A DNA stretch of 41,770 nucleotides from an archaeon (GCA_030019325.1 JASEFB010000001.1:1-41770), one strand, 5' to 3'. Shown: positions 16,427 through 38,910, numbered from the stretch's first letter. A program made the numbers and translations. Notes: generated by a model not told the origin, from the sequence alone.

Positions 16427-16575
16427 CCGTAGAACCGATCGGCGCGGAACCGGTAGTATTTCCTTTTGTTACCTTTACAGATGTCCACTTTGCTTCTAAT
16501 TTAACGATAAATGTCACGCTTTATAGAGCTAGCACTGTGGACGAAGATAATAAAAGAGATGATGAAATGGACTGA
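16427..16575. repeat. Direct repeat copy A (~150 bp), left flank of the MntA/HepT cassette
   Basis: CCGTAGAACCGATCGGCGCGGAACCGGTA.TATTTCCTTTTGTT.CCTTT.CAGATGTCCA...CACGCTTTATAGAG... recurs at 17488-17640. On the minus strand it reads ..DICKGNKRKYYRFRADRFYG, which looks like the 5' end of a gene. A partial third copy of the tail lies near 15288-15320. Confidence 0.8.
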
Positions 16576-16752
16576 CGATGGATATAATAAAACGAAATTA
16601 AACAATGCGAAATTTTTAAGAAGTGGTTTATGTTTTTGATGATATTGAGACAGAGAAGCTATAAAAAGGCTGGTGGGTAATAGTACCATGAAGGTGAAAG
16701 AACGAGAAGAGTAAAATAGAATCATCGGAAAAAGCAGCGGTGGTGAGTTATT

Positions 16753-17076
16753 ATGATTTTGAAGCGGGAAATGATGAAAATGAATGACGAACTTGAAAGG
16801 ATCATAAAAACGCTCGCAGCGCATAAGGAAGAGTTAAAGCAAAGATACAAGGTCAAAGAGATCGGTATCTTTGGCTCTGTGGTGAGGGGTGAGCAGAAGG
16901 GAACAAGCGATGTAGATATACTGGTGGAGTTTGAAAAACCAATTGGATTTTTCACGTTTTTAGAACTCGAAGAATATTTAAGCAATTTACTGGGGCTTAA
17001 GGTTGATCTTGTCTCGAAAAAGGCTTTGAAACCGAATATAGGGAGGTATATATTGCAGGAGGTAATACCGATATGA
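16753..17076 (+). CDS. mntA: MNT-type nucleotidyltransferase antitoxin (MntA)
   Basis: GIFGSVVRGEQKGTSDVDILVEF is the GS-x(9-10)-DxD Pol-beta NTase motif. It overlaps the DUF86 gene by 4 nt. The true start may be an internal Met. Confidence 0.85.
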   Translation: MILKREMMKMNDELERIIKTLAAHKEELKQRYKVKEIGIFGSVVRGEQKGTSDVDILVEFEKPIGFFTFLELEEYLSNLLGLKVDLVSKKALKPNIGRYILQEVIPI

Positions 17077-17423
17077 AAAGGGACTTCAAAGATTATATCC
17101 AGGATATTTTATCATCTCTAGAGGAGGTTGAGGATTTTACAGAGGGATTGGATTTTGAAGACTTCTTAAGAGACAGAAAAACAATAAATGCAGTTATAAG
17201 GAGCCTTGAAATTATTGGTGAAGCTGCAAAGAAGATACCAGAAGATTTAAGAAATGGACATCCTGAGATGCCATGGAAGCGTATGACGGGTATGAGGGAT
17301 AAACTTATCCATGAGTATCATGGAGTGGATCTTGAAATAGTCTGGACAGTCATTAAAGAAGAGCTGCCCCCGCTGAAACCCCTGATAGAAAAGGTATTAA
17401 AGGAAATAGAGGGGAAGGAATGA
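17073..17423 (+). CDS. hepT: DUF86/HEPN toxin (HepT)
   Basis: The MKRDFKDYIQDIL start, AVIRSLEIIGEAAKKIP and GMRDKLIHEY (the Rx4-6H HEPN motif) are typical of DUF86. Confidence 0.85.
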   Translation: MKRDFKDYIQDILSSLEEVEDFTEGLDFEDFLRDRKTINAVIRSLEIIGEAAKKIPEDLRNGHPEMPWKRMTGMRDKLIHEYHGVDLEIVWTVIKEELPPLKPLIEKVLKEIEGKE

Positions 17424-17487
17424 AGAGATGAGATCAGCCTTAAAGCCGAGGATAGGGAAGCATATTGTAAAGGGGGCTGTTTACACA

Positions 17488-17640
17488 CCGTAGAACCGAT
17501 CGGCGCGGAACCGGTACTATTTCCTTTTGTTGCCTTTGCAGATGTCCATTATCTCAATCTAACGATTAATTTCACGCTTTATAGAGGTACCACGGTCGAT
17601 GAGGATTAGAAAGAGATGGAGAAATGGGTGGAAGGAGGGA
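17488..17640. repeat. Direct repeat copy B, right flank of the MntA/HepT cassette
   Basis: It aligns by eye with 16427-16575 over ~150 bp, with scattered substitutions and small indels. Confidence 0.8.
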
Positions 17641-17882
17641 TATGATTGCGGAAGTTATATGTATATAATAAGGAAAAATAGCGTGAACAGGAAATTAAAG
17701 AGAAGGATGAGAGATTAATGTTTAAAGAGGGAATGGTCATTGAAGGACCCTTCTGGCCGGAGTCCTATCCTCTATCTAATAAATAATCTTGCGAATAATC
17801 TTAAGATTGAGGAGAAGATGGAGGGAGTGAGGTTCATAGTTCCTCGTGATGAATGGAAGCATAAAACTAAGGAGGTGATACC

Positions 17883-18107
17883 ATGGAATCAATAGAAGAG
17901 AAAATAAAGCAATTGTCTCCAGAATCACAGAAGGAGGTTATGGATTTCGTTGATTTCTTGCTTCAAAAAGGGGAGAAAAGACCGAAGAGAAAGCTTAAAT
18001 TGGATTGGGCTGGCGCCTTAAAAGAGTTCCGTGATGAATATACTTCCGTAGAGCTTCAGCACAAAATATCAAAGTGGAGGCTTGAGGATGAACTTAATAG
18101 ACACTAA
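17883..18107 (+). CDS. vapB: DUF2281-type antitoxin
   Basis: EEKIKQLSPESQKEVMDFVDFLLQK is the DUF2281 signature. It overlaps the PIN gene. Confidence 0.7.
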   Translation: MESIEEKIKQLSPESQKEVMDFVDFLLQKGEKRPKRKLKLDWAGALKEFRDEYTSVELQHKISKWRLEDELNRH

Positions 18108-18486
18108 TATAGTGCTTGAGCTATTATTAGAACGGGAGAAGGCAGAAAGTGTCCGTGACTTTTTTCAACGGATTCCAGCTTCTAAAATATTTGTAAGCGA
18201 CTTTTCTTTACATTCCATTGGAATTTTTCTATTGAAAATCGAAATGCCTGAGGTTCTAAGGGGATGTATTGAAGATCTCATCATTTTTGGAGGTGTTCAA
18301 GTTTCGAGTCTTAACTCACGGGAAATAATAGATGTCGTGGAGATTGCCAATCGTTTTCACCTTGACTTTGATGATGCTTATCAATATACAGTAGCAGAAA
18401 AGCATGATTTGCAAATAGTAAGTTTCGACACCGATTTTGACCGAACAGAGCGAGGTAGAAAGACACCTGATGAGGTTGTTCAATGA
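18088..18486 (+). CDS. vapC: PIN-domain toxin (VapC)
   Basis: MNLIDTNIVLELL (Asp), DFDDAYQYTVA and IVSFDTDFD give the PIN acidic residues. The likely start is the third Met of the track ORF. Confidence 0.8.
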   Translation: MNLIDTNIVLELLLEREKAESVRDFFQRIPASKIFVSDFSLHSIGIFLLKIEMPEVLRGCIEDLIIFGGVQVSSLNSREIIDVVEIANRFHLDFDDAYQYTVAEKHDLQIVSFDTDFDRTERGRKTPDEVVQ

Positions 18487-18818
18487 AGCGATTCATCGAA
18501 GTGAGCTTCCCGGTAAAAGAAGTGAGCGAGGAATCCGCACGCGAGAAGAACATCCGGCACGGCCATATCTCCACGCTCCATATCTGGTGGGCTCGCCGAC
18601 CGGTAGCGTCTTCGCGTGCTACTACGTATGCTGCATTAATCCCTGCTCCCGATCCTGACGACGCTGAGGAATGGGATAAGAAGCGGAAGGACATCATCGA
18701 GCTCTCGAAATGGGAGAACTCTCTAAATCCCACGCTTACCGAAAAAGTAGGGCAAGACATACCGCATTGTTACGGAAAAGGAAACGGAAGTTTACAAGGA
18801 AGCAGAACAGTACCTTGA
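18483..18818 (+). pseudogene. N-terminal ~95 codons of a DUF1156 anti-phage DNA methylase; the rest is missing
   Basis: MKRFIEVSFPVKEVSEESAREKNIRHGHISTLHIWWARRPVASSRA is the conserved DUF1156 N-terminus. Full-length proteins of this family are several hundred residues longer. The start overlaps the vapC stop (ATGA). Confidence 0.65.
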
Positions 18819-18965
18819 AGAGAAGAGCAAAACTTGTAGAGGAATGGGGCTTGAACCTGTGCCGGATGGACCTATGCCAGAAGGAAAAAGAACCTAGAGC
18901 AGAAAAGCCTTCGCAGCCAGTACATTGAGAGATCAAAATGACCATGAAGAGTGAGAGGAGAAAGA

Positions 18966-19259
18966 ATGAAGAATCTGGCAGATATAATGAAAACGCTCGC
19001 AGCGCATAAAGAGGAATTACAGCAGAGATACAAGGTCAAAGAGATCGATATCTTTGGCTCTGTGGTAAGAGGTGAGCAGAAGGGAACAAGCGATGTAGAT
19101 ATACTGGTGGAATTTGAAAACCCAATTGGATTTTTCACGTTTTTAGAACTTGAAGAATATTTAAGCAATTTACTGGGGCTTAAGGTTGATCTTGTCCCAA
19201 AAAAGGCTTTGAAACCGAATATAGGGAGGTATATATTGCAGGAGGTAATACCGATATGA
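18966..19259 (+). CDS. mntA: MntA nucleotidyltransferase, second near-identical copy
   Basis: It differs from 16753-17076 at only a few residues (e.g. IGIFG/IDIFG, EFEKP/EFENP). The ATG at 18966 is preceded by GAGAGGAG. Confidence 0.8.
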   Translation: MKNLADIMKTLAAHKEELQQRYKVKEIDIFGSVVRGEQKGTSDVDILVEFENPIGFFTFLELEEYLSNLLGLKVDLVPKKALKPNIGRYILQEVIPI

Positions 19260-19294
19260 AAAGGGACTTCAAAGAAATAGAGGGGAAGGAATGA
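19256..19294 (+). pseudogene. hepT: HepT relic: in-frame deletion leaving a 12-codon mini-ORF (MKRDFKEIEGKE)
   Basis: The first 19 nt and the last ~24 nt are identical to the ends of 17073-17423. The 312 nt between them are absent (351 vs 39 nt), with the junction in an AAAG(A/G) microhomology. Confidence 0.85.
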
Positions 19295-19332
19295 AGAGCT
19301 TGGAAGAGATAAAGAAGCACTTGAAGTACCGA

Positions 19333-19372
19333 ATCGTCAGATTATCGTCAGATTTGCGTCCAGATCGACGCA
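19333..19372. repeat. Two tandem 11-mers (ATCGTCAGATT) followed by the palindrome TGCGTC-CAGATC-GACGCA
   Basis: Read directly. The same 11-mer array recurs at 21519-21548. Confidence 0.8.
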
Positions 19373-19439
19373 TGATATATTTGTCATTGATAAACTCATC
19401 TTAACAAATGAATAGAATAGAAAGCGAGGCGTGTATAAA

Positions 19440-19865
19440 ATGCTGTCCAAGGAAGTAGTGGAGAAGATCAAGGAAGAGTTAACGGCATTTGTCGGCGCTG
19501 AGCTTGCGAGCATTGTCCTTTATGGCTCATATGCCGAGGGAAGAGAATCGAAATATTCCGATATCGATATCTTAGTTGTAGTGAGGCGGCATTTTAAAGA
19601 TTGGCGTGCTCGCAGAGAGGGTGAAATAGCGCTGAGAAAAATTTTATATCGTTCTGTCGGTCAGGTCTCACCACGAATTATAGGAGCCGACGTGATTCTC
19701 ACGACCCTGAAAAACTTCAACCCGCTGTTACTGAATATCCTCAAGCACGGTATCCCACTGCTCGATGACGGCACGTTTGCAAAGGTTAAAGAAGAATTCC
19801 AACGCATGGTAGAGGCGAAGATAATAGAACCGAGAGAAGATTATTGGATGGTCGCTATTACATGA
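19440..19865 (+). CDS. Nucleotidyltransferase-domain protein (antitoxin of an NTase/HEPN pair)
   Basis: IVLYGSYAEGRESKYSDIDILVVV is the Pol-beta NTase motif. The stop overlaps the HEPN start (ATGA at 19862). Confidence 0.8.
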   Translation: MLSKEVVEKIKEELTAFVGAELASIVLYGSYAEGRESKYSDIDILVVVRRHFKDWRARREGEIALRKILYRSVGQVSPRIIGADVILTTLKNFNPLLLNILKHGIPLLDDGTFAKVKEEFQRMVEAKIIEPREDYWMVAIT

Positions 19866-20317
19866 ACAATCGCAGTAAAGTCTTCGAGATTGCAGAAGCG
19901 TATCTTTTGGAAGCCTTTACTGACTATGATGCAGTACCCATACTCATCGCGCATGAAAAATATAATCTCGCTGTATATCACGCGCAACAGGCGGTTGAAA
20001 AACTGCTTAAAGCGTGCTTAGCCGCCGAGGGTGCTATTGGCATATACAAACATGAAGTGTTTCGCCATTTCAAAGAGGTGTTCAGTACCAAAATCGATGC
20101 ACAAACGATGAATAGCATAGAAGAGAATGTGATTGAACTCGAAGAAGAATGGGCGCTGTCACGTTATCCCGACTGGGAAGTTGAACCTATATGGATCCCG
20201 TCCAGGGGTTATACTAAGCAGAACGCAGAAGAGAGGAGGAACAACATGAACATTGTCTTCGAGATCCTTACGAAATTTTTGAGAGATAACTACAAGTTGA
20301 AAAAAAAGAAGGAGTAA
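19862..20317 (+). CDS. HEPN-domain protein
   Basis: AVYHAQQAVEKLLKACLAAEG and WALSRYPD are typical of the PF05168 HEPN family. It is the partner of the upstream NTase. Confidence 0.8.
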   Translation: MNNRSKVFEIAEAYLLEAFTDYDAVPILIAHEKYNLAVYHAQQAVEKLLKACLAAEGAIGIYKHEVFRHFKEVFSTKIDAQTMNSIEENVIELEEEWALSRYPDWEVEPIWIPSRGYTKQNAEERRNNMNIVFEILTKFLRDNYKLKKKKE

Positions 20318-20321
20318 GCAC

Positions 20322-20471
20322 ATGCCAACCCATGATATAATTGATAATCGGGAAGGAATCCTGTTAGACCACGTAAAAGGCCTGCTCAGAGTCTCAGAAA
20401 GTGCGAAGTTCGCCGTCGGCTATCCCTTTACCTGCGGATTAAAAACTATTGAGAAGGCGAGGAGCGTGTAA
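20322..20471 (+). pseudogene. 5' stub (49 codons) of a PLD-SNF2 helicase gene, copy 1
   Basis: MPTHDIIDNREGILLDHVKGLLRVSESAKFAVGYPFTCGL... aligns with the start of 23234-24574. Its stop TAA is 1 nt before the Fic ATG. Confidence 0.8.
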
Positions 20472-20472
20472 C

Positions 20473-21510
20473 ATGTATCGTCCAAACTTTACCATCACGA
20501 AGAAAATCCTCAATCACATAGCAGAGATTTCTGCCTCTCGTGAGGTCATACTTAACGCACCGCTGCTCCCTAAATGGGAAGCCAAATTGAGAAAAGAAGC
20601 GATTCTAAAGATGGCGCACCATTCCACGAGTATCGAAGGGAACAGACTCACAATGGACGAGGTTAATAGGCTGCTCCGGGGCGAAGATATAGCGGCATGG
20701 GAGAAGGACAAAAAAGAAGTTCTGGGATACGTGAAGGTTCTGGAATACATAGACAAGCTGGGAGAAGAAGGTGTTGCCTCGATTACTGAAGATATAATCC
20801 TCGAAATACACCGGCTTAATACCCAAGGGATTCTCCCTGATTCTGAAGCCGGGCACTATCGGAACGTGGAGGTTGCTGTGGTTAACGGTCTGGGAAGAGT
20901 TACGTTTCAACCCCCGGAAGCAGCGCAAGTTCCTTCATTAATGAATGGCTTTATTGCATGGCTAAACGGTAAGGAAGCAAAAGAATCATATCCCGCTTTA
21001 GTAAGCGGGATTGCGCACTACGAATTCGTTAGGATACATCCCTTTGTAGATGGCAACGGAAGAACTACACGGGCACTGGCAACCTTAATCCTCTATCTGA
21101 GGGGTTTTGACACGAAACGCTTTTTTGCCTTGGACGATTATTATAACGAAGAACGCAGCAGATATTACGCAGCTCTGCAAACCGTTGACCCACTAACAAT
21201 AAATCTCACACAATGGCTGGGGTACTTTACAGAAGGCGTCGCAGTAAGTATGGGCAGGGTTAAACAAGCCATCTTAGACCTGAGTGTGGATCGGCGCCTC
21301 AAAGAGCAACGAGGACAAATATACCTGAACGATAGACAGATGAAGATTCTCAAATATCTTCAGACCAATCCAAGAATTACCATCAGTGAGATACAAAAAA
21401 TGTTCGATATTAGTAGAGACACAGCAAACCGTGATCTCAAACCACTCTTAGAAAATACCTTAGTGAAAAGGAGGGGAAAAGGGAGGGCGATATACTATGA
21501 ACTGGCTTAA
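20473..21510 (+). CDS. Fic/DOC-family protein with a C-terminal winged helix
   Basis: HPFVDGNGRTTRAL (21037-21072 plus the next two codons) is the Fic motif HxFx(D/E)GNGRxxR. The C-terminus ...ISEIQKMFDISRDTANRDLKPLLENTLVKRRGKGRAIYYELA is a wHTH. The ATG at 20473 is preferred over the TTG at 20449. Confidence 0.85.
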   Translation: MYRPNFTITKKILNHIAEISASREVILNAPLLPKWEAKLRKEAILKMAHHSTSIEGNRLTMDEVNRLLRGEDIAAWEKDKKEVLGYVKVLEYIDKLGEEGVASITEDIILEIHRLNTQGILPDSEAGHYRNVEVAVVNGLGRVTFQPPEAAQVPSLMNGFIAWLNGKEAKESYPALVSGIAHYEFVRIHPFVDGNGRTTRALATLILYLRGFDTKRFFALDDYYNEERSRYYAALQTVDPLTINLTQWLGYFTEGVAVSMGRVKQAILDLSVDRRLKEQRGQIYLNDRQMKILKYLQTNPRITISEIQKMFDISRDTANRDLKPLLENTLVKRRGKGRAIYYELA

Positions 21511-21518
21511 AATAAGAA

Positions 21519-21548
21519 ATCGTCAGATTATCGTCAGATTATCGTCAG
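21519..21548. repeat. 2.7 tandem copies of the 11-mer ATCGTCAGATT, starting 8 nt after the Fic stop
   Basis: Read directly. It is followed by AATGACAAA, the inverse of TTTGTCATT at ~19377. Confidence 0.8.
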
Positions 21549-21560
21549 GTGAATGACAAA

Positions 21561-21725
21561 ATGCCAATACATGACATCATAGATAACCAGAAAAGCATCC
21601 TGTTGGATCACGTAAAAAGTTTGTTAAGAGACTCGGATAGTGCGAAGTTCGCCGTTGGCTATTTCTTTACCAGTGGCCTGGCACCTATTGACAAGGTGAG
21701 GAGTACAAAAAAGAGGAATACTTGA
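21561..21725 (+). pseudogene. 5' stub (54 codons) of a PLD-SNF2 helicase gene, copy 2
   Basis: MPIHDIIDNQKSILLDHVKSLLRDSDSAKFAVGYFFTSGLAPIDKV... aligns with the start of 23234-24574. Its stop is 13 nt before the next ATG. Confidence 0.8.
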
Positions 21726-21738: not shown

Positions 21739-23079
21739 ATGCCACTACCAAAGGAATCCCACACAACAGAGCTGAAAAAGTCATTAGCGCAGTTAGACGA
21801 TTCTTTGAAGTCCGTCTGCGCCTTTCTCAACCATAAAGGCGGGACCGTTTATTTCGGCGTGGCCAATGACGGCGAGATTCGTGGTCTGGATGTCTCGGAC
21901 AGAACATTGAGGAAAATATCGCAGCAGATTCATGCAAGGATAAAGCCTGAAATCACTCCTGAACTAAGAGAAATAAAGGAAAAGGGCAAATCAATAATAG
22001 AACTGAAAATCTCGGAAGGCAATAACAAGCCTTACTTCCTTAATGGCGTGGCCTACAAGCGAATAGGAACCGAAAACAGGATTATTCCACCGGATGAATT
22101 GAGGCGAATTATTCTGGAGCAGCGACAAACGAAATGGGATGAGGAGACCTGTGAAGGCGCGACACTAACGGATATTGACGCGGAGAAAGTACAATGGTTC
22201 TTAAGAAAAGCCACGTTTGAACGACGGCTGGAAATAGACCCAGCAATATCAGTAAAAGAAGCGTTGGAACGGATTGGCCTGCTGAAGGAGAATAAACTCA
22301 CCAATGCCGCTATTTTGTTATTCGGTAAAAAGCCGCAACGGTTCTTCATGCAGTCAGAGGTCAGATGTGCCAGATTTAAAGGCACAGAGCCTCTGGAGTT
22401 CATTGATATGAAAGTCTTTGCAGGAACTGTTATTGACCAGCGGGAAGATGCAGTGGAATTCGTCAAAGAGCATATTAAATTGCATGCCAAGATCATTGAA
22501 ACTGAAAGAGTTGAGAGATGGGAATATCCCCTTGAAGCACTACGAGAAGCACTTACCAATGCGCTCTGTCATAGAGATTATGAACTATCAAGCAATGTTC
22601 AAGTTAGAATATTCGATGACAGAATTGAGGTCTGGGGATGCGGGCCGCTACCACAACCATTAACCGTAGAAGATTTAAGAACGAAACACGATTCTATTTT
22701 AAGAAATCCTCTAATCGGAGAATGCTTCTTTTTGATTAAATTTATTGAGCAATGGGGAACTGGTACGAATCGTATTATCCGTGAATGTTTGAACTATGAC
22801 TTGCCAGAACCTCTGTTCGAAGAAGCTGCTGGCAATCTCGTTGTCACCTTTCGGAAGAGTAAATTTACAGAAGAATATCTCAAACAACTCAGTTTAAATG
22901 AGCGGCAGATGAACGCCCTCAACCACCTTAAAGCGAATGAAAAGATCACGAGGAAAGAATACTCGTCTCTGTTTAATTGCTCAACGCGAACGGCGTTCAA
23001 TGATCTTCAGGAGATGATGGATAAAAGGATAGTAAAAAGGAAAGGAAAGGGGAAATATACCTATTATGAGATGGCTTAG
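21739..23079 (+). CDS. AlbA_2 (Schlafen-type) plus HATPase_c_4 (RecG-C-like) domain protein with a C-terminal wHTH
   Basis: ESHTTELKKSL...FLNHKGGTVYFGVANDGEIRGL is the AlbA_2/AAA_4 N-terminus. EALREALTNALCHRDY...IRIFDDRIEVWGCG is the HATPase_c_4 block. The C-terminal KGKGKYTYYEMA wHTH resembles the Fic tail. Confidence 0.8.
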   Translation: MPLPKESHTTELKKSLAQLDDSLKSVCAFLNHKGGTVYFGVANDGEIRGLDVSDRTLRKISQQIHARIKPEITPELREIKEKGKSIIELKISEGNNKPYFLNGVAYKRIGTENRIIPPDELRRIILEQRQTKWDEETCEGATLTDIDAEKVQWFLRKATFERRLEIDPAISVKEALERIGLLKENKLTNAAILLFGKKPQRFFMQSEVRCARFKGTEPLEFIDMKVFAGTVIDQREDAVEFVKEHIKLHAKIIETERVERWEYPLEALREALTNALCHRDYELSSNVQVRIFDDRIEVWGCGPLPQPLTVEDLRTKHDSILRNPLIGECFFLIKFIEQWGTGTNRIIRECLNYDLPEPLFEEAAGNLVVTFRKSKFTEEYLKQLSLNERQMNALNHLKANEKITRKEYSSLFNCSTRTAFNDLQEMMDKRIVKRKGKGKYTYYEMA

Positions 23080-23086
23080 CGTGCAA

Positions 23087-23118
23087 CTACCGTGCACCTA
23101 CCGTGCAATATTTGCACG
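23087..23118. repeat. Two 11-bp-period units (CTACCGTGCA) merging into the palindrome CGTGCAA-TAT-TTGCACG
   Basis: Read directly. It begins 8 nt after the stop of 21739-23079. Confidence 0.75.
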
Positions 23119-23178
23119 CATGCACGTGCTGAAGGTGTAAAAATGCCCATACCAAAGGAGAGAGGTGGTCGCAACCAC

Positions 23179-23247
23179 ATGAATAACCGTAGCAAAGAGA
23201 ACTGCAAGGTGGAGAAGAAGGAGGACTGCTCGAATGTCAACCCATGA
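23179..23247 (+). pseudogene. HEPN relic: mini-ORF retaining only the first 6 and last ~10 codons of a 19862-20317-type gene
   Basis: ATGAATAACCGTAGCAAAG matches the start of the HEPN gene (ATGAACAATCGCAGTAAAG). AGAACTGCAAGGTGGAGAAGAAGGAGGA matches its 3' end (ATAACTACAAGTTGAAAAAAAAGAAGGAGTA). Just upstream, 23143-23165 mimics the start of the AlbA_2 gene (ATGCCCATACCAAAGGAG). Confidence 0.6.
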
Positions 23248-24574: not shown

Positions 24575-24620
24575 GGTGCATTACGCATTTCTTACAGGTT
24601 AGATATGAACGGGGAAAAAG

Positions 24621-24650
24621 TTTATATATGCCCTGTTACAATGTAACAAT
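24621..24650 (+). promoter_or_regulatory. TATA box (TTTATATA) plus a perfect palindromic operator GTTAC-AAT-GTAAC just before the RHH gene
   Basis: TTTATATA lies at 24621-24628, about 25-30 nt upstream of the ATG at 24653, which suggests a leaderless or short-leader mRNA. The palindrome at 24635-24647 lies between them. A second palindrome, GTTAC-ATC-GTAAC, is at 24895-24907. Confidence 0.5.
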
Positions 24651-24652
24651 CA

Positions 24653-24859: not shown

Positions 24860-24963
24860 GGTGTCTCAAACAAAAGTGGGAGTTATCACAAGGCGTTACA
24901 TCGTAACAATGGATTAATGATACTGAAAACCACCTCGAATTTTAGAAATCATAGTTGTAAGAA

Positions 24964-25587: not shown

Positions 25588-25590
25588 TGC

Positions 25591-28521: not shown

Positions 28522-28573
28522 TGAAATGGTTCCAACGAAAGAATAAAAAATAAAAACTGATGGTGCGATATTC

Positions 28574-31911: not shown

Positions 31912-34167
31912 TCAGTCCAATTCTCCATTAATTGGCTCTCTCGGTGTCCAACTATACATTCCTCTTGCCTCCGGGGGATATTTTGCTGGTTTTGAAATAT
32001 CAATTCCCTCGCGTAGGCCAAGGTGGTGTGTGAGGTAAAGTGCTTGAATCACGAGATCAATAGCTCCTAGAACCGAGTGCCGATCAGTTGAAAGTTCAAA
32101 TACCTTCATTTGCTTCTTAAGATACTTTTTAATCGTATTCGCAAGATCATTATATGGTGGGCATCGTAGAATGACAGCTATTTTATTGCTGCGGTGGCGA
32201 TAAGCACTGATATATCGGCCGTGAGTGAAATTTTTTAGTTCGGAATATTCAATAGTTGCGATTCCTCCTTCGACGAATTTTGATTCCAAATCAACAAGTG
32301 CTGGTCTAGCCCAACCACTTCCAAGAGCAATAAAATGATAGTTGCTTGGTGATCCCGAAAGACCTTCACACATTTCACGTGCTCGGAAGTCGGCCGCCTT
32401 AAAGATGCTTGAAAGATTTTTATACTCAAATAGCTGATCTAAATCCTCTTTAAGGTTATTAGGGGCGAAAATAGCCAGAAGTGATCCCAGAGTAGCGAGA
32501 TACCCTACTGTAGCCACAAAGCCTTGGCGATGTTTTGAAACAATGAATACTTGCCAGCCAGAATCACCAGCACGCTTAGAAAGTTCTGAATCAGGATCGC
32601 TGGTAAAAACTAACCCATTAGTCACTCTTAGTGCACGAAGTTTATCAAAAGATCGCAAAATGTCAGGATTGGATCCTCTATATGAAATTAAAACAGGTAG
32701 TATTTCATTTAAAGGTGTGCTAATTGACTCTAACTCATAAGGAGGGATAGCTCTAGCAGGGTTACCACGAAGTGAAAAAAGTAATTGTTCACCAAACACC
32801 GCAGCACTGAAGGAACCACCGGAACCAATAAACAAGAGGGGTGTAGATTTAATCATAGATTCAATCTCATCTCTCTTTTTTGAGTTGAGTAACTGGAATT
32901 GTACCTGCGAATAAGTCTCACTCATCGGAATAAGCGCTTGCGCTAACTCCGCTCCAAATTCATTTTTTCGGGGGTATTTACTTGATATTAGCGATTTTTT
33001 TCGATTTGTGCCCATTACTTTCGGCTCGCCACAGATATGACATACACCATACGCTTGGAATCTAAAAGGAAACTTAAAAGGTTCTGGTATACCAGAGCTA
33101 GGCGGTAATGAGGAGAAAGCTTGTCCGTTGTAGGCAACCTCGGCCCCAAGTGTGAGTGCTTCAGCTGCGTGAACTTTGTTAGTAGCTAAAACCCTTGGAT
33201 AACTCCTAGCTCCGTAGAAGCTGCAGCTCAAAGAGGCTAATCCTTGCGCTACAGAAAGCATCTTTTCTTCAAACCCAATTTCAAGTCTTGCAGACTTGTT
33301 GAGGATTTGAGCTAAAATCGCACCGATTAAAATATCCCCAGCACCAGCGGTGTCACATAATCTCAAGCATTTTATAGCTGGAAATTCAAACTTTTGAAAC
33401 TCCGATCTTGGTCCACGGATGAACCCGTAAACACCTTGTTCGCTGTCGGTTACAATTAAAAGTTTAATTCGCTCAAATCGTTGCGAAAAAGCATCCAAAG
33501 ACTCAAATTTATTTTGTGACTCAAGTCTATTCCGTTTAAGAAAGTTTTTGAATATACGCGAGTTTACCTTAACCATCGTGGCAATTGCAATGAGTTCCTG
33601 AGCTTTCGATCTTGAGCTTTCAAAGCTATCAAAAGAAAAATCAAAAGAAACAAATTTATTAGCTTTTGAAGCCGTTCTTGCTAGCATAAGTGAGCTATCA
33701 TTTGCACGGTCTGTATGTACGATTTGGCAGTGTCGAACTGTTTCCAACATTTCTTTAGTAATATCCCATTTATTAAGAACAACACTGCGACTTATAGGAG
33801 CGCCGCAATCTGGGCATTTATGTAAGAACTTATGTGAATGGTTGGATTCAGAAATAACCTGGAAATACTGCCTAGATCTCCTAAACTGACCAGCTCCACC
33901 TCTCTGTATTAACCATCGAGTATTTACTCCAAAGTTTTTAATGTCTTGCTTAATTATTTCAGACTGAATATCATTTCCAATTGCTCCAATAATGGCGGTT
34001 TTGAAACCCAAAGTTCCAAGAAACGACAATGTATTACCTACTGATCCACCTCCTGCACTTCCCAAATATTTAAGCGATGTTTTCTGGTTAGGAGTAATAG
34101 TTTTCAAGAAAATATGATCCACCGCAACGAGTCCCATGCCAAGAACATCAAGCTTCATTTTCATCAC
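31912..34167 (-). CDS. PfkB-family kinase fused to a double SIS (phosphosugar-binding) domain
   Basis: GSAGGGSVGNT (GG motif) and CDTAGAGD (33334-33354) are PfkB signatures. Cys pairs are CPDC (residues 118-121) and CHIC (376-379). The C-terminal ~300 aa carry two SIS-type repeats, LLFIGSGGSFSAAVFGE and HFIALGSGWARPALVDLESKFVE (about 32008-32850). Confidence 0.75.
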   Translation of the reverse strand: MMKMKLDVLGMGLVAVDHIFLKTITPNQKTSLKYLGSAGGGSVGNTLSFLGTLGFKTAIIGAIGNDIQSEIIKQDIKNFGVNTRWLIQRGGAGQFRRSRQYFQVISESNHSHKFLHKCPDCGAPISRSVVLNKWDITKEMLETVRHCQIVHTDRANDSSLMLARTASKANKFVSFDFSFDSFESSRSKAQELIAIATMVKVNSRIFKNFLKRNRLESQNKFESLDAFSQRFERIKLLIVTDSEQGVYGFIRGPRSEFQKFEFPAIKCLRLCDTAGAGDILIGAILAQILNKSARLEIGFEEKMLSVAQGLASLSCSFYGARSYPRVLATNKVHAAEALTLGAEVAYNGQAFSSLPPSSGIPEPFKFPFRFQAYGVCHICGEPKVMGTNRKKSLISSKYPRKNEFGAELAQALIPMSETYSQVQFQLLNSKKRDEIESMIKSTPLLFIGSGGSFSAAVFGEQLLFSLRGNPARAIPPYELESISTPLNEILPVLISYRGSNPDILRSFDKLRALRVTNGLVFTSDPDSELSKRAGDSGWQVFIVSKHRQGFVATVGYLATLGSLLAIFAPNNLKEDLDQLFEYKNLSSIFKAADFRAREMCEGLSGSPSNYHFIALGSGWARPALVDLESKFVEGGIATIEYSELKNFTHGRYISAYRHRSNKIAVILRCPPYNDLANTIKKYLKKQMKVFELSTDRHSVLGAIDLVIQALYLTHHLGLREGIDISKPAKYPPEARGMYSWTPREPINGELD

Positions 34168-36058
34168 CCCGAATCAGCTTTTTCGCCAAGATAAGGTTTT
34201 TATTCTCATCAGTTTGGGTTGGTATTAACGATTCTTGGACTTGAATGTTAATATCCCAGATTCCTGCAATTGCAGTAACTACCAACATTGAAGTTATGTC
34301 ATTACTGGGTATGAGGCACATCCTTTCGTAATCTATATTACGATTTTCTCGATAACTCTCAAGTAAGGCGACCGTACGATGAAAAGCAATTGCAGGACTT
34401 TCAGCCGGTAAGTATAACATCTTCTCTGTTCTTACGTGAAATCCATCTATATACTCGGCATGCATTGATAATAGTGAATCTAGACTATCGTTACACGAGA
34501 GAGGAAAAATCAAAGCTGGAATAATAATTGTATCCTCAGGTAAATCTGTAGACGGCGAGGAAAGTTTTGGTCCATATACGGAGAGAAAGGGTACAATGAG
34601 TTCTGATGCTGAACCGATATCGTTTTGGTTTGTAATTCTCATTTTGTTTTTGGTTTGTTTGAATTCATTATTGGAATATGCTGATTCATGAACTATACGG
34701 AACTCTAATGCCATGCTTTTCTCAATCTTCCCTTTTGGGACTTTTTCAGCGGCGTCATTAATACTTTTCTCTGAAAAAAGTTCTAAAATTAGCCAATTGG
34801 GTTCAATTAGCTTCTGCAAATCTTTGTATATTTGAGATTCGGGGTCTATTGAAGCTGCCAAGTCAAAGTTAATAGATGAAATATCCCCGAGTTCGACAAG
34901 TGTAAATCGAGAGAGGGCTGAAAGCGAAACTTGTCGTTGACAATTCTCTTTAAACATGCCTTTTTGTTCTTCTAGATCTATATCATCATAGAGCATCTTC
35001 GTGTGTCGATGATGAGCAACCCGAGGAAAGAGCGGGTACCAACCGTTGTCAGAATGCCATAGAAAGTAAAGGCTATTATTTGGGCAATTCGCCCCGATAA
35101 TCAATGAAAGCCCTCCAGCGCCAAGTCCAAAAAGGCATCCCCTACCTTTTCGAGTGTGATTATCCTCTTGGAAACGGTCGTAATACTTCACTAATAATTT
35201 AACTGCAGATTCATCAACCGACTTTTCTCCATCTACCGTGTGAATAAGCCATTCAGATGGTGGAACAATTAAAAGTGGTAAAATATTGACTTCTGCAATT
35301 CCCGTAACATCACCAGTGATCTGGTCTAAGCGCTCTTGGAGTACAGATTCCACATGAGAAGAAGCTATTAGAGGAACATAGTAAACATCTGCGTTTGCAG
35401 CGACTGGTCGCCATCTACTGAAGAAGGACCGCAACTTACCTTTTGACTCGCGCTCCTTACCTTTAAATTCAAATCGAAGGGCGCTAGTGCCACTACCACA
35501 AAACTGGTCGAGAAGAAAAAAACGCTTTAGAGAGCCGATTTTGGTTTCAATTTCTCTAATATCTGCTTCTCCCATTTTGTAATATTCAACAAAATTCTCT
35601 TTTTCCAGTTGAGGAAAACGTCGTCGTGCTTTGCGTCTGAAATAATCAAAGCCTATATCATCAGAGAGAGCAACAAATATGTTTCTTTTTATCTCTCGGA
35701 TAAAAACTTCTTCCAGAGACCCACTGTTTTTTGATGTATAGGACTGTATTACCGATTGCCATGAAAGTGTTGAAGCAAGGTCAAGCGCAAATTCTACTAA
35801 AGCGCGGAGTTCATTCCTTGATATGTATCTGATACAATTTACAAGATTTAGCGCTAGGCTGCGGTCTTCAGGGCTAAAGTTTGAAAGCCATTTAAGAAGA
35901 CGCCTTTCAAAGGTATCGCCGGGAAGGTACATCTCGTATCTGTCAAATCTTCTTTCGGCATTAAAAATTAAGCCCTTCAACGACATACAGGATATCATCT
36001 CTCTTGGTATGCCAATTTCTTCGAGTTTTCTCGCTAAAGCTTCCTCTTTGACCATCAT
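34148..36058 (-). CDS. 636-aa protein with a phosphoribosyltransferase-like PRPP-loop motif; otherwise unassigned
   Basis: Residues 180-193, FFLLDQFCGSGTSA (35480-35521), resemble the PRPP-binding loop of type I PRTases. The C-terminal ~260 aa have no recognisable motif. It overlaps the downstream kinase gene by 20 nt. Confidence 0.6.
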   Translation of the reverse strand: MMVKEEALARKLEEIGIPREMISCMSLKGLIFNAERRFDRYEMYLPGDTFERRLLKWLSNFSPEDRSLALNLVNCIRYISRNELRALVEFALDLASTLSWQSVIQSYTSKNSGSLEEVFIREIKRNIFVALSDDIGFDYFRRKARRRFPQLEKENFVEYYKMGEADIREIETKIGSLKRFFLLDQFCGSGTSALRFEFKGKERESKGKLRSFFSRWRPVAANADVYYVPLIASSHVESVLQERLDQITGDVTGIAEVNILPLLIVPPSEWLIHTVDGEKSVDESAVKLLVKYYDRFQEDNHTRKGRGCLFGLGAGGLSLIIGANCPNNSLYFLWHSDNGWYPLFPRVAHHRHTKMLYDDIDLEEQKGMFKENCQRQVSLSALSRFTLVELGDISSINFDLAASIDPESQIYKDLQKLIEPNWLILELFSEKSINDAAEKVPKGKIEKSMALEFRIVHESAYSNNEFKQTKNKMRITNQNDIGSASELIVPFLSVYGPKLSSPSTDLPEDTIIIPALIFPLSCNDSLDSLLSMHAEYIDGFHVRTEKMLYLPAESPAIAFHRTVALLESYRENRNIDYERMCLIPSNDITSMLVVTAIAGIWDINIQVQESLIPTQTDENKNLILAKKLIRGDENEA

Positions 36059-36129: not shown

Positions 36130-36768
36130 TTAATAACCCAAGGTGGTGATGTTCTTATCCAAAATCATGAAGAGTTCAGTGAGCTGTTCTATATGCACAT
36201 CACCCGCTGATTTCGATCCCATACCGATTACAAAACAACCTACGGCTTTGCCAGCCTGATAATCAGCTTTTGTATCTCCCACGAGTATCACGTGCTCCGG
36301 CTTCACGTTGAGCCGTTCACACGCCTTTATCACAATTTCAGGATCAGGCTTTCCTCTTTTCACCTCATCCCCGGTAACAATCACGTCAAAATGGTTAGAG
36401 AGATAGAAGTGCTCTAATATCTTATTGACGTTCTCACGCGGCGTATTCGTGACTAACCCTACTTTAAGTTTATATTTCTTTTTCGTGCGGCGTAGAACTT
36501 CTCCGGCACCTGGAAACAGCTCGATAAGTGCTATCAACTTCCGTTGTTCCTGCACGCAATACTCCGCGGCGTCTTCACCGAGCTGTAACGCATCGAGGTT
36601 ATGCCTCAGGTCAGGCCCCCAGCAGTTCGCTTTAAACACATCTCTACTCAGTTCTTTCTTCCCATAAGCTCTTAGCATCCTATTAAACGCTTGATACCAG
36701 CTCTCTAATGAGTTTATCAGGACACCATCAAGGTCAAATAAGATCGCTGCTATTTTTATCTCGTTCAT
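36130..36768 (-). CDS. HAD-IA family phosphatase
   Basis: AILFDLDGVLINS (motif I DxD), LVTNTPR (motif II) and K...VGDTKADYQAGKAVG (motifs III/IV). Confidence 0.85.
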   Translation of the reverse strand: MNEIKIAAILFDLDGVLINSLESWYQAFNRMLRAYGKKELSRDVFKANCWGPDLRHNLDALQLGEDAAEYCVQEQRKLIALIELFPGAGEVLRRTKKKYKLKVGLVTNTPRENVNKILEHFYLSNHFDVIVTGDEVKRGKPDPEIVIKACERLNVKPEHVILVGDTKADYQAGKAVGCFVIGMGSKSAGDVHIEQLTELFMILDKNITTLGY

Positions 36769-37252
36769 TGTACGTTGCGTGTAGGTATTTGGTAATAGCT
36801 TACTTAAATTTTTTCGTGTTCTGAAACTATTTCAAGAACTCCTTTTTCAGGATCACCAAAAGCGCTACTTTCGGTAATAGGTGGTATATGCTTCGCTTTC
36901 GGTTACGCCCACATTGTCCACGGTAACTTTATATAAACCACAAAATTATATGAAATTGCGGCATGCATTATACATTAAAGTAATGCTAAAAATGGCATTC
37001 AATAAAAAATCTTTTCAGGTTGTAGAAAGTGTAAACAAGCCCAGAATTAAAGATAGATTACTGGACGATAGACTGGGATTATAAGGGCGATATATTCCAC
37101 AACCAGTGGCAGAGTTTCAGGGTGAAAAAGAATCCGATGGTAGATTATGATGCAATGTATAGGTATGCGGAAGCTGGGGAGTACCAGGTAATGGTTAAGG
37201 TTATTGATGTTTTTTGAAACGATACCAATAAGGTTTTGAAGCTGAGGGTAAA

Positions 37253-37585
37253 ATGAAGAGGAAAATTCCAGAAGAAATAAAACCGATTTTGGAAGAGGTG
37301 AAAAAGAAGCTCAAAGAAATCTATGGAGAGAAACTGAGAGGAGTTATTTTATATGGTTCGTATTCCCGAGGGGATTTTAGCGAGGGTTCTGATATAGATC
37401 TCATAATACTGTTAGAAGATATGAAAGACCCCATTACCGAGCGTGAAAAATATTTTAATGAGATATGGGAATTAGACCTAAAATATGATACGGTAATCTC
37501 CATAATTCCATTCAAAGAAGAAGAGTACAAAACAAGAAGACTACCGGTTATTCTTAATGCAAAAAGAGAGGGAATTCCCATATGA
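37253..37585 (+). CDS. Nucleotidyltransferase-domain antitoxin
   Basis: GVILYGSYSRGDFSEGSDIDLIILL NTase motif. ATGA overlap with the HEPN gene. Confidence 0.8.
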   Translation: MKRKIPEEIKPILEEVKKKLKEIYGEKLRGVILYGSYSRGDFSEGSDIDLIILLEDMKDPITEREKYFNEIWELDLKYDTVISIIPFKEEEYKTRRLPVILNAKREGIPI

Positions 37586-37917
37586 GAGACGAAGAATATT
37601 CACACCTCATCAAAAAGGCAAAAGAAAGTCTTGAGGCTGCAAAGCATTTATTTAAAAATGGATATACGGATTTTTCTGCCAGTCGTTCTTATTATACCAT
37701 GTTTTATACTGCAGAGGCCCTGTTGCTAACCAAAAACCTATCCTTTTCTAAACATAAAGCAGTCATATCGGCTCTTGGCAAGGAATTTGTCAAAACCGGG
37801 TTGATTCCTCCAAGTCTGCATCGTTACATTTCAGATGCCTTTGACATAAGACAGGCTGGGGACTACGGTCCTATAGGTTCGGTGAGTGATGAAAAAGCCG
37901 CGATGCTTGCTCATTGA
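37582..37917 (+). CDS. HEPN-domain protein, apparently frameshifted near its 3' end
   Basis: ASRSYYTMFYTAEALLLTKNLSFSKHKAVISALGKEFV and RQAGDYG are HEPN (PF05168)-like. After the stop at 37915-37917, the +1 frame continues IEHAGEFIKIAEEYLRKEGYVL (to 37981), the expected family C-terminus. Confidence 0.7.
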   Translation: MRDEEYSHLIKKAKESLEAAKHLFKNGYTDFSASRSYYTMFYTAEALLLTKNLSFSKHKAVISALGKEFVKTGLIPPSLHRYISDAFDIRQAGDYGPIGSVSDEKAAMLAH

Positions 37918-38031
37918 GCACGCAGGAGAATTCATAAAAATAGCCGAGGAATATCTGAGGAAAGAGGGATATGTGTTATGAAACCCACTGAACTTCTACA
38001 GCCCGACCAAAGACAAAACAAAGAACGGCCG

Positions 38032-38169
38032 CTAAAAACGCTTCAAGAAATCTTCAACAACCTTAATATCTTCTTCGTTAAGCCCGTACAGCTTATAATC
38101 AAGTAAGAGTCCCTCAATTTCTCTTATACTCCTCATTTTTTGTTTTTTAAGGTCTTCTACCTCTCTCAT
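38032..38169 (-). pseudogene. Possible 3'-terminal remnant of a restriction-modification methylase gene
   Basis: The 45-aa ORF contains ..LLLDYKLYGLNEEDIKVVEDFLKRF. The YxLYGLTEEEIxxVE-type tail is characteristic of type IIG/Eco57I-like enzymes. Confidence 0.3.
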
Positions 38170-38344
38170 ATTATTACACTTTCTTCCCCTTCTCTATGAC
38201 TTCTCTTGCACCTTATAACCGCAAAGTTTGCCATCTCATCTTTAACAAACTCATCGCAAGTCATCCCTTCTACAAACCTCTCCGCACGTTCCGTTCCATG
38301 TTTTCAAGTATGTCCTTGACATAGATCGAGATGTCCCGCTTCAT
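38170..38344 (-). pseudogene. hepT: Decayed DUF86/HEPN (HepT) gene
   Basis: It starts MKRDISIYVKDILENME with an ATGA overlap to mntA, then hits a stop after 24 codons. Another frame continues ..AERFVEGMTCDEFVKDEMANFAVIRC.. and then the homology is lost. Confidence 0.6.
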
Positions 38345-38634
38345 GGATAAACCACCTCCTTGAGAATTCTTTCCTTCAGTTCTGGTCTGATATCTCCCTT
38401 GGGCACAAGGTCAACTTTTATACCCAAAAGATCAGATAGATAGTTTTCCAATTTAACAAGACCGAGAAGGCTTACAGCCCCCTCAAACTCGACTAGAATA
38501 TCTATATCGCTTACCTCTTTCTCCTCACTTCTTACATAATAACCGAAAACTCCTATCTCTTTTACCTTAAAACGCTCCCTTAATTCATCCCTGTGCATTG
38601 CCAGTATTCCCTTTATCTCCCCAATTCTCTTCAT
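38341..38634 (-). CDS. mntA: MNT-type nucleotidyltransferase antitoxin (MntA)
   Basis: GVFGYYVRSEEKEVSDIDILVEF NTase motif. The architecture matches 16753-17076. Confidence 0.8.
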   Translation of the reverse strand: MKRIGEIKGILAMHRDELRERFKVKEIGVFGYYVRSEEKEVSDIDILVEFEGAVSLLGLVKLENYLSDLLGIKVDLVPKGDIRPELKERILKEVVYP

Positions 38635-38822
38635 ATTTTCTCTCTCCCGGTGTTATGCCTCAGGTCTGGCCTCCAGCAGTTCGCCTTAAACGTTTCTCTG
38701 CTCAGTTCTTTCTTCCCGTAAGCCCTTAACATTGCATTAAACGCTTGATACCAGCTTTCTAATGAGTTTATCAGAACACCATCAAGGTCAAATAAGATTG
38801 CTGCTATTTTTCTGGTGGTCAT
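38631..38822 (-). pseudogene. 5' stub (~57 codons) of a HAD phosphatase gene, duplicate of the start of 36130-36768
   Basis: MTTRKIAAILFDLDGVLINSLESWYQAFNAMLRAYGKKELSRETFKANCWRPDLRHN matches the HAD N-terminus. DNA homology spans 38652 to about 38860 versus 36599 to about 36810, including ~40 nt upstream of the ATG. Its stop overlaps the mntA ATG. Confidence 0.8.
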
Positions 38823-38910
38823 CGTATGTAGATAGGTAGTAATAGCTTAACATCATTTTAAAATATTTGCGGCGTTTATACTTTAAAGGGGGTGATAAAG
38901 CTGACAACTA

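Follow-up and report, generated by a model that had tools for sequence, protein, structure and literature searches.

Insertion with long target duplication (ILTD) has been described for restriction-modification gene complexes of bacteria, and its mechanism is unknown (Furuta, Abe and Kobayashi 2010, PMC2853133). Arrays of displaced C-terminal ends of Rhs genes have been explained by homologous recombination with small circular intermediates, which shunt the old gene end aside (Jackson et al. 2009, PMC2935791). The Hma and BREX-related operons, which contain an HKD-Snf2 gene and a DUF1156 methylase gene, are a reported hotspot for other defence genes, and these are located between the operon components in most genomes (PMC11232893, PMC12839542). 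Hypervariable hotspots of ANME-1 archaea contain structural variants, among them insertions and partial deletions, that are enriched in toxin-antitoxin (TA) operons and restriction-modification genes; the text of that study does not mention direct repeats, homologous recombination, truncation, or an integrase (PMC13385816). Here we describe an entire metagenomic contig of 41,770 nucleotides (nt; GCA_030019325.1 JASEFB010000001.1:1-41770), called the window below, from a methane-oxidising archaeon of the ANME-1 group (Methanophagales). The homologues of its HAD protein carry the source names Methanophagales or ANME-1; the HAD protein of the window itself was not on record. In the window, short direct copies of the 5' ends of four genes, encoding an HKD-SNF2 defence helicase, a secreted beta-helix protein, a HAD phosphatase, and a radical-SAM protein, alternate with small TA and defence cassettes. 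The best explanation of these gene-start copies, or stubs, which we consider fairly probable, is the integrase-free, homology-anchored stacking of units, each composed of a cassette and a gene start, by Campbell-type or ends-in recombination.

The gene content of the window was determined from a map of open reading frames (ORFs) and from Pfam and PADLOC scans, and repeats were identified by gapped self-BLAST. Small TA and defence genes are densely packed at 15.2–28.5 kb and 36.8–38.9 kb. The remaining window contains ordinary genes, for example the methanogenesis-pathway gene Ftr, a Na+/H+ exchanger gene, a radical-SAM gene of the HMPTM type, and the HAD phosphatase gene. According to Pfam and PADLOC, the cassettes encode Fic/SoFic, AlbA_2, MntA/HepT, nucleotidyltransferase (NTase)/HEPN, PIN, ParE/RelE, and PaREP1 proteins. 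All 13 off-diagonal self-BLAST pairs are direct and none is inverted. The repeats are 51–321 nt long, share 77–95% identity, and are located at gene 5' ends of the four loci; a duplication of the MntA gene and a short conserved motif are among the 13 pairs as well. Their E-values extend from 8e-4 down to 1e-131, and the similarity of the stub pairs described here, with E-values of at most 1e-14, is significant and not a product of chance. A first-pass annotation of the window had proposed that the same stub-cassette layout occurs at four loci and had estimated by eye that the stubs are 75–90% identical. The layout was borne out by self-BLAST, alignments, and Pfam and PADLOC matches, in the case of the radical-SAM locus through the related contig L171 (related contigs are labelled L001, L002, L003, and so on), and the described pairs measure 77–92%. 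Beyond the window, too, orientation is always direct: in helicase loci totalling 620 kb this applies to all 29 repeat pairs with a length of 50 nt or more, and in L171 to 14 of 14. There are three copies of the helicase start, four of the beta-helix start, and two to three of the radical-SAM start, of which L171 contains four.

The HAD phosphatase gene (Pfam HAD_2) is intact and occupies, together with about 60 nt of upstream sequence, positions 36130–36827 of the minus strand. It is 87–89% identical to the genes of L001–L003 over its whole length. A 5' stub on the same strand (38631–38871) consists of 57 homologous codons and about 50 nt of upstream sequence of the close-relative type. The two copies form a self-BLAST pair (36598–36802 and 38652–38849; 205 nt, 84% identity, E 1e-58) and, in the alignment, have about 35–50 nt of upstream sequence and the 57 codons in common. 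The stub and the full gene bracket an NTase/HEPN pair (37253–37917, plus strand, opposite to HAD; Pfam) and an MntA gene with a HepT remnant (38294–38634, minus strand; Pfam, six-frame self-comparison, alignment), as had been annotated, with the amendment that only the start of HepT is preserved. The ATG of MntA overlaps the stop codon of the stub. Empty sites, the search for which had been suggested in the first-pass annotation, are present in relatives: a single HAD start was found in 16 other ANME-1 loci (the close relatives L001–L003 and 13 further genome loci), L004 lacks the AlbA_2 unit at the equivalent helicase site, and L003 has a single native beta-helix start. The gene order in L001–L003, each with one HAD start, is methyltransferase, HAD, radical-SAM (HMPTM), and Na+/H+ exchanger.

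An IS630-like insertion sequence (IS; 38906–40122, plus strand) follows the upstream end of the HAD stub at a distance of about 35 nt; it encodes a DDE_3 transposase and is bounded by terminal inverted repeats of 16 nt (Pfam, inverted-repeat search). The genes conserved upstream of HAD, an ORF of 97 residues and the methyltransferase gene, are absent from the window. The element probably broke the upstream synteny and is no part of the mechanism discussed here; it was rejected as the cause of the HAD duplication, since it begins about 35 nt past the repeat end and has its own inverted repeats. On the other side of HAD, a PRTase-CE protein gene (PADLOC PRTase_III-A) and a PfkB-kinase/SIS protein gene are inserted at 31912–36058, between HAD and the HMPTM radical-SAM gene. 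The same site contains an NTase/HEPN pair in L001 and L002 and nothing in L003; it is another hotspot, one without stubs.

The helicase locus is encoded on the plus strand and contains two stubs. Stub A (20322–20471) has 49 codons, and its stop codon is located 1 nt before the ATG, at 20473, of the Fic/SoFic cassette (20473–21510; Pfam Fic, PADLOC SoFic E 3.5e-59), which has a C-terminal winged helix-turn-helix (wHTH) domain. Stub B (21561–21725) ends 13 nt before the ATG of the AlbA_2/HATPase_c_4/wHTH cassette (21739–23079; Pfam). The HKD(PLD)-SNF2 helicase gene itself (23234–24574; Pfam PLDc_2, SNF2) is cut at 446 of about 1070 codons, and its homology to full-length genes ends at 24573. Self-BLAST and Pfam/PADLOC matches therefore uphold the annotated arrangement, in which stubs at 20322 and 21561 and a 3'-truncated gene at 23234 enclose Fic and AlbA_2 inserts. 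The full-length homologue in L006 matches PADLOC 'HKD+Snf2' (5e-75). Stubs were delimited by self-BLAST and alignment; three pairs, each 77% identical, connect the copies (20284–20441 and 23196–23353, 158 nt, E 4e-27; 20322–20464 and 21561–21703, E 2e-24; 21560–21685 and 23233–23358, E 5e-19), and all copies share the ATG and the next 43 or so codons. Stub A is preceded by an NTase/HEPN cassette (19431–20317; Pfam), before which a tandem ATCGTCAGATT motif was identified at 19333–19354 by Tandem Repeats Finder (TRF). Directly upstream of the helicase gene, positions 23144–23233 contain micro-remnants: an AlbA_2-like start (ATGCCCATACCAAAGGA) and, after it, a HEPN gene of which only the start and the 3' end are left, joined to each other. 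L015 has this HEPN remnant too, upstream of its full-length helicase gene.

A metagenome scan with the helicase N-terminus yielded 80 loci, including about 12 close relatives with 78–87% amino-acid identity. L004 is colinear with positions 20322–21685 of the window (85% identity over 1371 nt), including the stub A-to-Fic junction: stub A, Fic, the motif, and a helicase start follow each other. Because the helicase start in L004 runs straight on into the gene, L004 is an empty site for the unit composed of the stub B tail and AlbA_2. Every unit of the helicase array in the window was found singly before the helicase gene in other ANME-1 contigs. NTase/HEPN is located directly before the gene in L013, which holds only the helicase start; Fic and, after it, the ATCGTCAGATT motif in L012 and L004; the upstream type with the HEPN remnant in L015 and L014; and VapBC in L006, L007, and L009. 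The helicase is complete (1070 residues) in L006, L012, and L015, has a broken frame in L004, and is cut short or runs off the contig end in the others. The motif upstream of stub B is of the type that precedes helicase copies in L004 and L012, and the association of upstream type with stub or gene status is reversed between L004 and L010. In L010 and L016, a HEPN fragment is fused to a stub and precedes a further cargo gene.

All ANME-1 helicase stubs have a common tail after codon 42 ('GLAPI(E/D)'). A site-specific breakpoint at codon 43 or so was considered and rejected, since the common 'CCTATTGA' tail indicates one inherited event: because all ANME-1 stubs have the same tail, the breakpoint arose once and was then inherited and recombined. 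Independent helicase stub events end at codons 19, 38, and about 41. Such independent stubs of the same helicase gene are present in more distant contigs from outside ANME. L078 (GC content 48%, helicase N-terminus 47% identical) contains a 115-nt duplication with 97% identity that extends exactly from the ATG to codon 38, and its 811-nt insert begins with the 3'-terminal 47 codons of the upstream wHTH-NTase gene, in the form of a second allele, and continues with an NYN gene. Helicase stubs in L018 (GC content 60%) and L035 are older or shorter. Other genes are affected as well. L005 contains an NTase 5' stub followed by VapB and the full NTase gene, and L168 contains a 273-nt beta-helix stub with 87.5% identity and an inserted gene of 100 residues; the beta-helix stub of L169 (see below) is a further independent case. 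In L003, a duplicated methylase 3' end flanks a gene of 166 residues on both sides, and therefore the process is not confined to 5' ends.

Each wHTH-bearing cassette of the window is followed by its own 11-nt tandem repeat (TRF), ATCGTCAGATT in 2–2.7 copies after Fic (2.7 copies at 21519–21548) and CGTGCAACTAC in 2.6 copies after AlbA_2 (23080–23108). These repeats are positioned just upstream of the next helicase start, and the ATCGTCAGATT array is kept upstream of helicase copies in L004, L010, L012, and L016. They may be operators, and are candidates for binding the wHTH domain of their cassette. In the ANME-1 contigs L092 (5083–5122 and 5926–5965) and L004 (about 1855–1890), inserted genes are surrounded by duplicated intergenic tandem motifs that are about 10 nt long and belong to the AATCTGTGT/AAATCCGTGT type. 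The peptide encoded by stub A was rejected as a Fic antitoxin, since inspection by eye found no [ST]xxxE[GN] antitoxin motif at the right spacing. Downstream, at 24575–24963, the helicase gene (plus strand) and the beta-helix gene (minus strand), both truncated, converge, and only an ORF of 68 residues separates them; it looks as if one deletion removed the 3' parts of both genes.

The beta-helix locus on the minus strand contains four direct copies with TA and PaREP1 inserts, as annotated, and two of the four have no start codon. The longest copy (24964–25587; ORF, family matches) is truncated to 207 residues and is 76% identical to L003 at 12289–12494, inside a gene of more than 2195 residues. 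It is followed, towards higher coordinates, by a PaREP1 cassette (25591–26094; Pfam) and by stub 3 (26087–26293; self-BLAST, alignment), which has 68 codons and includes the signal peptide. A PIN gene with a 67-residue partner gene and a RelB/ParE-type pair with a toxin of only 62 residues (26308–27553; Pfam) separate stub 3 from stub 2 (27768–27893; self-BLAST, alignment), in which the start codon ATG is changed to ACG. The fourth piece (28437–28556) comprises codons 14–53 or so, has no start codon, and is located directly after the Na+/H+ exchanger gene. It is 85% identical to L003 at 12243–12362, and because the beta-helix gene of L003 has the same syntenic position after the exchanger, this piece is the native 5' remnant. 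Self-BLAST pairs connect the copies (26158–26276 and 27768–27886, 81%; 25385–25435 and 28460–28510, 92%; 25487–25551 and 27779–27843, 82%; 25481–25533 and 26163–26215, 77%), and the common part is the signal-peptide region or a slightly later segment. The PaREP1 cassette is 74% identical to PaREP1 of L169, where the order is PaREP1, beta-helix stub, PaREP1, and a large secreted-protein gene. A perfect (TGTT)x19 microsatellite is located at 27553–27629, between stub 2 and the RelB-like gene.

At the radical-SAM locus, the 5' fragments annotated on either side of MntA/HepT owe their identification to L171. Copy 1 (16427–16570, minus strand; self-BLAST) comprises codons 1–21 and about 80 nt of upstream sequence and matches L171 at 1458–1608. 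Copy 2 (17488–17627, minus strand; self-BLAST, frame reading) has an in-frame stop. The pair shares 84% identity (E 8e-36), and there is a partial third copy at 15288–15319, 88% identical to 17595–17626. L171 has a full radical-SAM gene of 221 residues, which begins MDMCKANKRKYYRFRADRFYGG; read on the minus strand, the window element (MDICKGNKRKYYRFRADRFYG) matches residues 1–21 of its product, and the repeat extends about 80 nt upstream of that gene. L171 contains four direct copies of the 140–170-nt element, with the intact gene at one end and MntA/HepT, MntA, and DUF2281/PIN cassettes between them. The MntA/HepT cassette between the two stubs of the window (16753–17423; Pfam NTP_transf_2, HepT-like) is encoded on the plus strand, and thus cassettes can occupy the strand opposite to the stub. 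Positions 16427–16931 are colinear with L171 1458–1952 through the radical-SAM start, the divergent intergenic region, and the neighbouring MntA.

Downstream of copy 2, a DUF2281 antitoxin gene and a PIN gene (17883–18486, plus strand; Pfam, ORF) end in an ATGA overlap with a stub of a further gene, a DUF1156/HmaB methylase (18483–18818, plus strand; Pfam DUF1156 E 2.5e-24, PADLOC HmaB E 1.6e-21). This N-terminal methylase fragment was not among the stubs listed in the first-pass annotation. Next comes a second MntA copy, 92% identical to the first, together with a HepT gene of which the first 7 codons and the last few remain, joined to each other (18951–19298, plus strand); this segment is 94% identical to L171 4345–4688. 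Positions 17388–18523 are 89% identical to L171 4649–5834. The second MntA with the HepT remnant and the segment comprising the radical-SAM stub, DUF2281/PIN, and the DUF1156 start are contiguous in L171 (4345–5834), and the two segments stand in the opposite order in the window (17388–19297). A circular or tandem intermediate would yield such a permutation. Upstream of copy 1, the partial third copy of the radical-SAM upstream element is followed by two fragments of an Eco57I/MmeI-type methylase gene (15288–15631, plus strand; BLAST), which match the L006 gene at 4453–4602 and 5788–5892 and also L014 and L015 (BLASTN; Pfam on the L006 gene). A cassette of a VapB-like antitoxin and a PIN gene (15687–16369, plus strand; Pfam PIN) is located directly upstream of the helicase in L006, L007, and L009 with 84–85% identity, and the helicase gene of L006 is complete (1070 residues).

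Two other readings of the radical-SAM element were rejected. A plus-strand C-terminal coding fragment had been considered since only that frame is open in both copies, with an in-frame indel; this reading was overturned by L171, and a profile search of 1.8 billion proteins with it gave only three short ORFs. A structured RNA or attC-like role is not indicated by folding z-scores of −1.7 to +1.9, which are not significant, or by Rfam, a scan of which matched tRNA only.

The stubs do not follow a simple rule of size or expression. The first-pass annotation had described them as similar in size; they range from 57 to 273 nt across the loci. It had also placed each stub end within 13 nt of, or overlapping, the start codon of the next gene, which is the case for four of the seven co-oriented stubs (stub A/Fic, 1 nt; stub B/AlbA_2, 13 nt; HAD/MntA, ATGA overlap; beta-helix stub 3/PaREP1, 7 nt), whereas the other three are 56–150 nt away. 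Upstream sequence is indeed carried by the HAD and radical-SAM stubs. The hijacking of promoter and translation start that had been proposed did not hold in general, since the radical-SAM stubs are oriented away from their cassettes, three co-oriented ones are distant from theirs, and defects occur in four stubs, namely a missing start codon in two, a stop codon within the frame in one, and a GTG start in one. Hijacking of expression may occur, but not as a general rule.

The divergence of the copies is informative about their origin. The ratio of nonsynonymous to synonymous divergence (dN/dS) between stubs and genes is 0.10–0.38, with 0.3–0.6 synonymous differences per site (pS), and functional orthologues from different contigs have dN/dS values of 0.17–0.22. 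The low stub-to-gene ratio therefore indicates that the copies diverged as parts of working genes in different lineages and were later brought together. Judged from these substitution patterns, the stubs are displaced starts of diverged alleles, not decayed local duplications. Two loci contain weak reciprocal mosaics. The first 171 coding nt of the HAD gene are 94–96% identical to L001–L003 and are preceded by upstream sequence of the L084 type; the HAD stub has upstream sequence of the L001–L003 type and a coding part that is only 88–90% identical to them. In the AlbA_2 unit, stub B has an L004-type upstream motif and is L015-like at informative sites (10 vs 3), and the full helicase copy has L015-type upstream sequence and is L004-like (10 vs 5). 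These mosaics hint at a single crossover near the start codon.

Based on these observations, a mechanism of array formation can be proposed. The window covers hypervariable hotspots of defence and TA genes, for which the ANME-1 population would carry many alternative alleles in which a small cassette, such as a TA pair, SoFic, AlbA_2, or PaREP1, abuts the start of a conserved resident gene. An incoming allele would recombine within the conserved first 60–270 nt of the gene, so that the unit is added and the resident is not replaced. A small circle could enter through a single crossover, or linear DNA through a comparable ends-in or one-sided event; in either case the displaced gene start would be left behind as a stub. 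Repeated rounds would produce arrays of stub, cassette, stub, cassette, and gene. The stubs would then provide portable homology for shuffling, loop-out, and re-insertion, for which a dedicated recombinase would not be required. Homology is the likely targeting principle because the same start is reused, orientation is exclusively direct, and the stubs are allelic in origin. The repeats, the empty sites, the alleles with a single cassette, the junctions common to several contigs, and the non-local, allelic origin of the stubs are established by the data; we infer the recombination pathway, the circular form, and any benefit for expression from a stub promoter or translational coupling. The Campbell-type integration put forward in the first-pass annotation agrees with the partial 5' copies, the unrelated inserts, and the empty sites, and homology-anchored recombination is the best fit to them; L078, on the other hand, resembles stacked linear alleles. 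Its insert, which starts with the 3' end of the gene of a neighbouring allele, looks like the product of one-sided stacking.

Several points weigh against homology-anchored stacking. All data are metagenomic contigs, in which no circular form or excision junction was seen. The mosaic signal consists of 13–16 informative sites, and retained ancestral states could mimic it. The arms are only 77–88% identical, which is low for efficient homologous recombination, and homologous recombination cannot make the first stub-to-cassette joints, which must be illegitimate. Given the single 'GLAPI(E/D)' breakpoint, many arrays are inherited and not independent. Truncation has also affected two of the target genes themselves (the helicase, 446 of about 1070 codons; the beta-helix gene, 207 residues), so the island is also simply decaying. 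In line with illegitimate first joints, microhomology-type internal deletions are frequent, as in HepT (first 7 and last few codons) and HEPN (start and end). The shortness of the stubs (57–273 nt) may partly reflect survivorship, with longer direct repeats quickly lost by recombination.

Homology-independent insertion with long target duplication is unlikely as the general explanation. Each cassette would insert de novo, through staggered breaks or replication template switching, and produce a fresh duplication of 60–270 nt at any target. The L078 duplication, 97% identical and starting exactly at the ATG, is what such an event would leave, and insertions with such duplications are documented for restriction-modification systems, with repeats of 46–420 bp and no mobility genes (PMC2853133). 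The first stub-to-cassette junctions require an illegitimate event under any model. However, most stub/gene pairs of the window, with 77–88% identity and dN/dS of 0.1–0.4, did not arise by fresh duplication of the resident copy; three to four hits on the same gene start would not be expected from random targeting; and junctions are common to contigs with differing flanks.

It is quite unlikely that the stubs are independent paralogues or tandem full-length duplicates, each cut by unrelated deletions, with cassettes filling the gaps. HAD is single-copy in the 16 relatives, and no locus showed more than one full-length helicase. All remnants are short, direct 5' ends, and none is long or from the middle of a gene; moreover, stub-to-cassette junctions are tight, and the stub-Fic junction is common to contigs. 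These findings stand against the large size of the beta-helix family, which has many fragments of 110–190 residues on record, the pairing of PaREP1 with two different secreted-protein genes in tandem in L169, the simple splitting of L170 by an IS, and the frequency of internal deletions in the island (HepT, HEPN, and the truncated helicase).

Integrative elements of the dusA type integrate into gene ends and supply a surrogate end. By this known strategy, integrases might have targeted 5' ends, provided replacement starts, and been lost, leaving behind addictive cargo, and TA modules resist loss. We consider such decayed elements very unlikely. As had been annotated, there is no integrase in the window: Pfam scans detected no integrase or recombinase domain, and the sole mobility gene belongs to the IS630-like element outside the HAD unit. 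Neither was an integrase found among the best 25 of 39 matched families of 31 flanking proteins from 11 related loci. At least five unrelated targets within 23 kb would demand as many integrase specificities, the inserts are only 0.6–1.9 kb long, and the repeats, 57–273 nt in length, have no conserved core. Scans of IMG/VR with the helicase, HAD, and radical-SAM starts gave distant matches or none, with nothing comparable to ANME-type stubs, and viral or plasmid vehicles were rejected on this basis. An assembly chimera of co-existing strains is extremely improbable, since, even though the window is a whole metagenomic contig from a population known for strain variation, repeats with 77–88% identity neither collapse nor mis-join in assembly, and multi-part junctions recur colinearly in independent samples (L004, L013, L015, and L171).

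Other features of the window were also observed. Toxin genes are selectively destroyed next to intact antitoxin genes at four positions: 19253–19298 (HepT, 7 and the last few codons), 23178–23233 (HEPN, start and 3' end), 38294–38340 (HepT, start only), and 27189–27377 (ParE/RelE, 62 residues). A block of low GC content (4763–8291; 32–35% vs about 43% elsewhere) contains five ORFs without a Pfam family above threshold, the last with a weak PD-(D/E)XK match, and ends at a tRNA gene (8219–8291); it may be an integrated element. The approximately 1.6 kb past the IS (40123–41770) contain no ORF longer than about 100 residues and no match to related loci.

ANME-1 strains were reported in a 2026 study to differ mainly at TA and defence hotspots, with no mechanism offered, and the stub architecture provides a concrete and testable one. 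As molecular fossils of uncultivable organisms, the stubs record in which order past acquisitions took place and from which lineages they came. Since the pattern recurs at HKD-Snf2 genes of unrelated contigs, it may explain more generally why Hma and BREX-related operons are insertion hotspots. A broader proposal, which we regard as rather doubtful, is an integrase-free cassette system in ANME-1, and perhaps in many prokaryotes at Hma/HKD-Snf2 loci, with a population-wide reservoir of minicircles or fragments, each a cassette plus 60–270 nt of gene start, that home to 5' ends by recombination over short, mismatched stretches and are kept for the stub promoter and coupled leader. If this is true, integrons would have a functional counterpart that is built from the starts of host genes and involves both housekeeping (HAD) and defence genes. 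As in integrons, the cassettes are compact, mostly promoterless, and co-oriented, and form arrays bounded by a repeated element. The differences are that the window has no IntI integrase domain and no structured attC, and that the boundaries are 5' fragments of host genes. An integrase-driven 5'-end island would have an integrase beside an att site with a short conserved core, whereas here there is no integrase and the repeat ends are variable (57–273 nt).

The Hma and BREX-related operons are similar to the window in their components, since it contains an HmaB-type DUF1156 stub and an HKD+Snf2 helicase of the same family. These are only remnants of a type 2 system: Pfam and PADLOC identified a helicase of 446 residues, a DUF1156 stub of 111 residues, and no DUF499. 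The papers on these operons describe neither duplicated gene starts nor an insertion mechanism (PMC11232893, PMC12839542).

ILTD resembles the arrays more closely. In both, direct repeats of variable length, from tens to hundreds of bp, stand on either side of a small selfish or defence unit that has no mobility gene (PMC2853133). The repeats described here, 51–220 nt at all four loci, exceed the 30 bp used to define ILTD; relatives contain a single repeat without the insert (HAD in 16 loci, the helicase of L004, and the beta-helix gene of L003); and the cassettes carry no transposase or integrase. The copies in ILTD are near-identical, whereas those of the window share 77–88% identity, with pS of 0.3–0.6 and dN/dS of 0.1–0.4, and only L078 and L010 reach 97%. 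The cargo of ILTD is restriction-modification genes, and here it comprises TA modules, SoFic, AlbA_2, and PaREP1. No archaeal case passed the screen of the ILTD authors (PMC2853133), and the present host is an archaeon. Unlike in ILTD, units are serially stacked at the same gene start.

Rhs arrays share with the window the dissociated gene-end fragments, which have the same orientation, are located beside the longest copy, and keep a variable conserved piece. In both, the fragments belong to the clade of the resident gene but to other alleles, as identity matrices and dN/dS indicate for the window. The polarity is a mirror image: 5' ends are displaced upstream here, whereas Rhs 3' tips are displaced downstream. 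An Rhs fragment continues in frame into a variable toxin tip and is followed by an immunity gene, whereas the reading frames of the stubs described here end a few codons at most from the junction, with the cargo encoded by genes of its own. The window also differs from Rhs arrays in that the targets are several unrelated genes. Homology-anchored stacking would extend ILTD and Rhs displacement, which were observed in bacteria, to archaea, 5' ends, and TA cargo. The arrays of the ANME-1 window differ from both in cargo, host domain, allelic divergence of the repeats, 5' polarity, and serial stacking at several unrelated genes.

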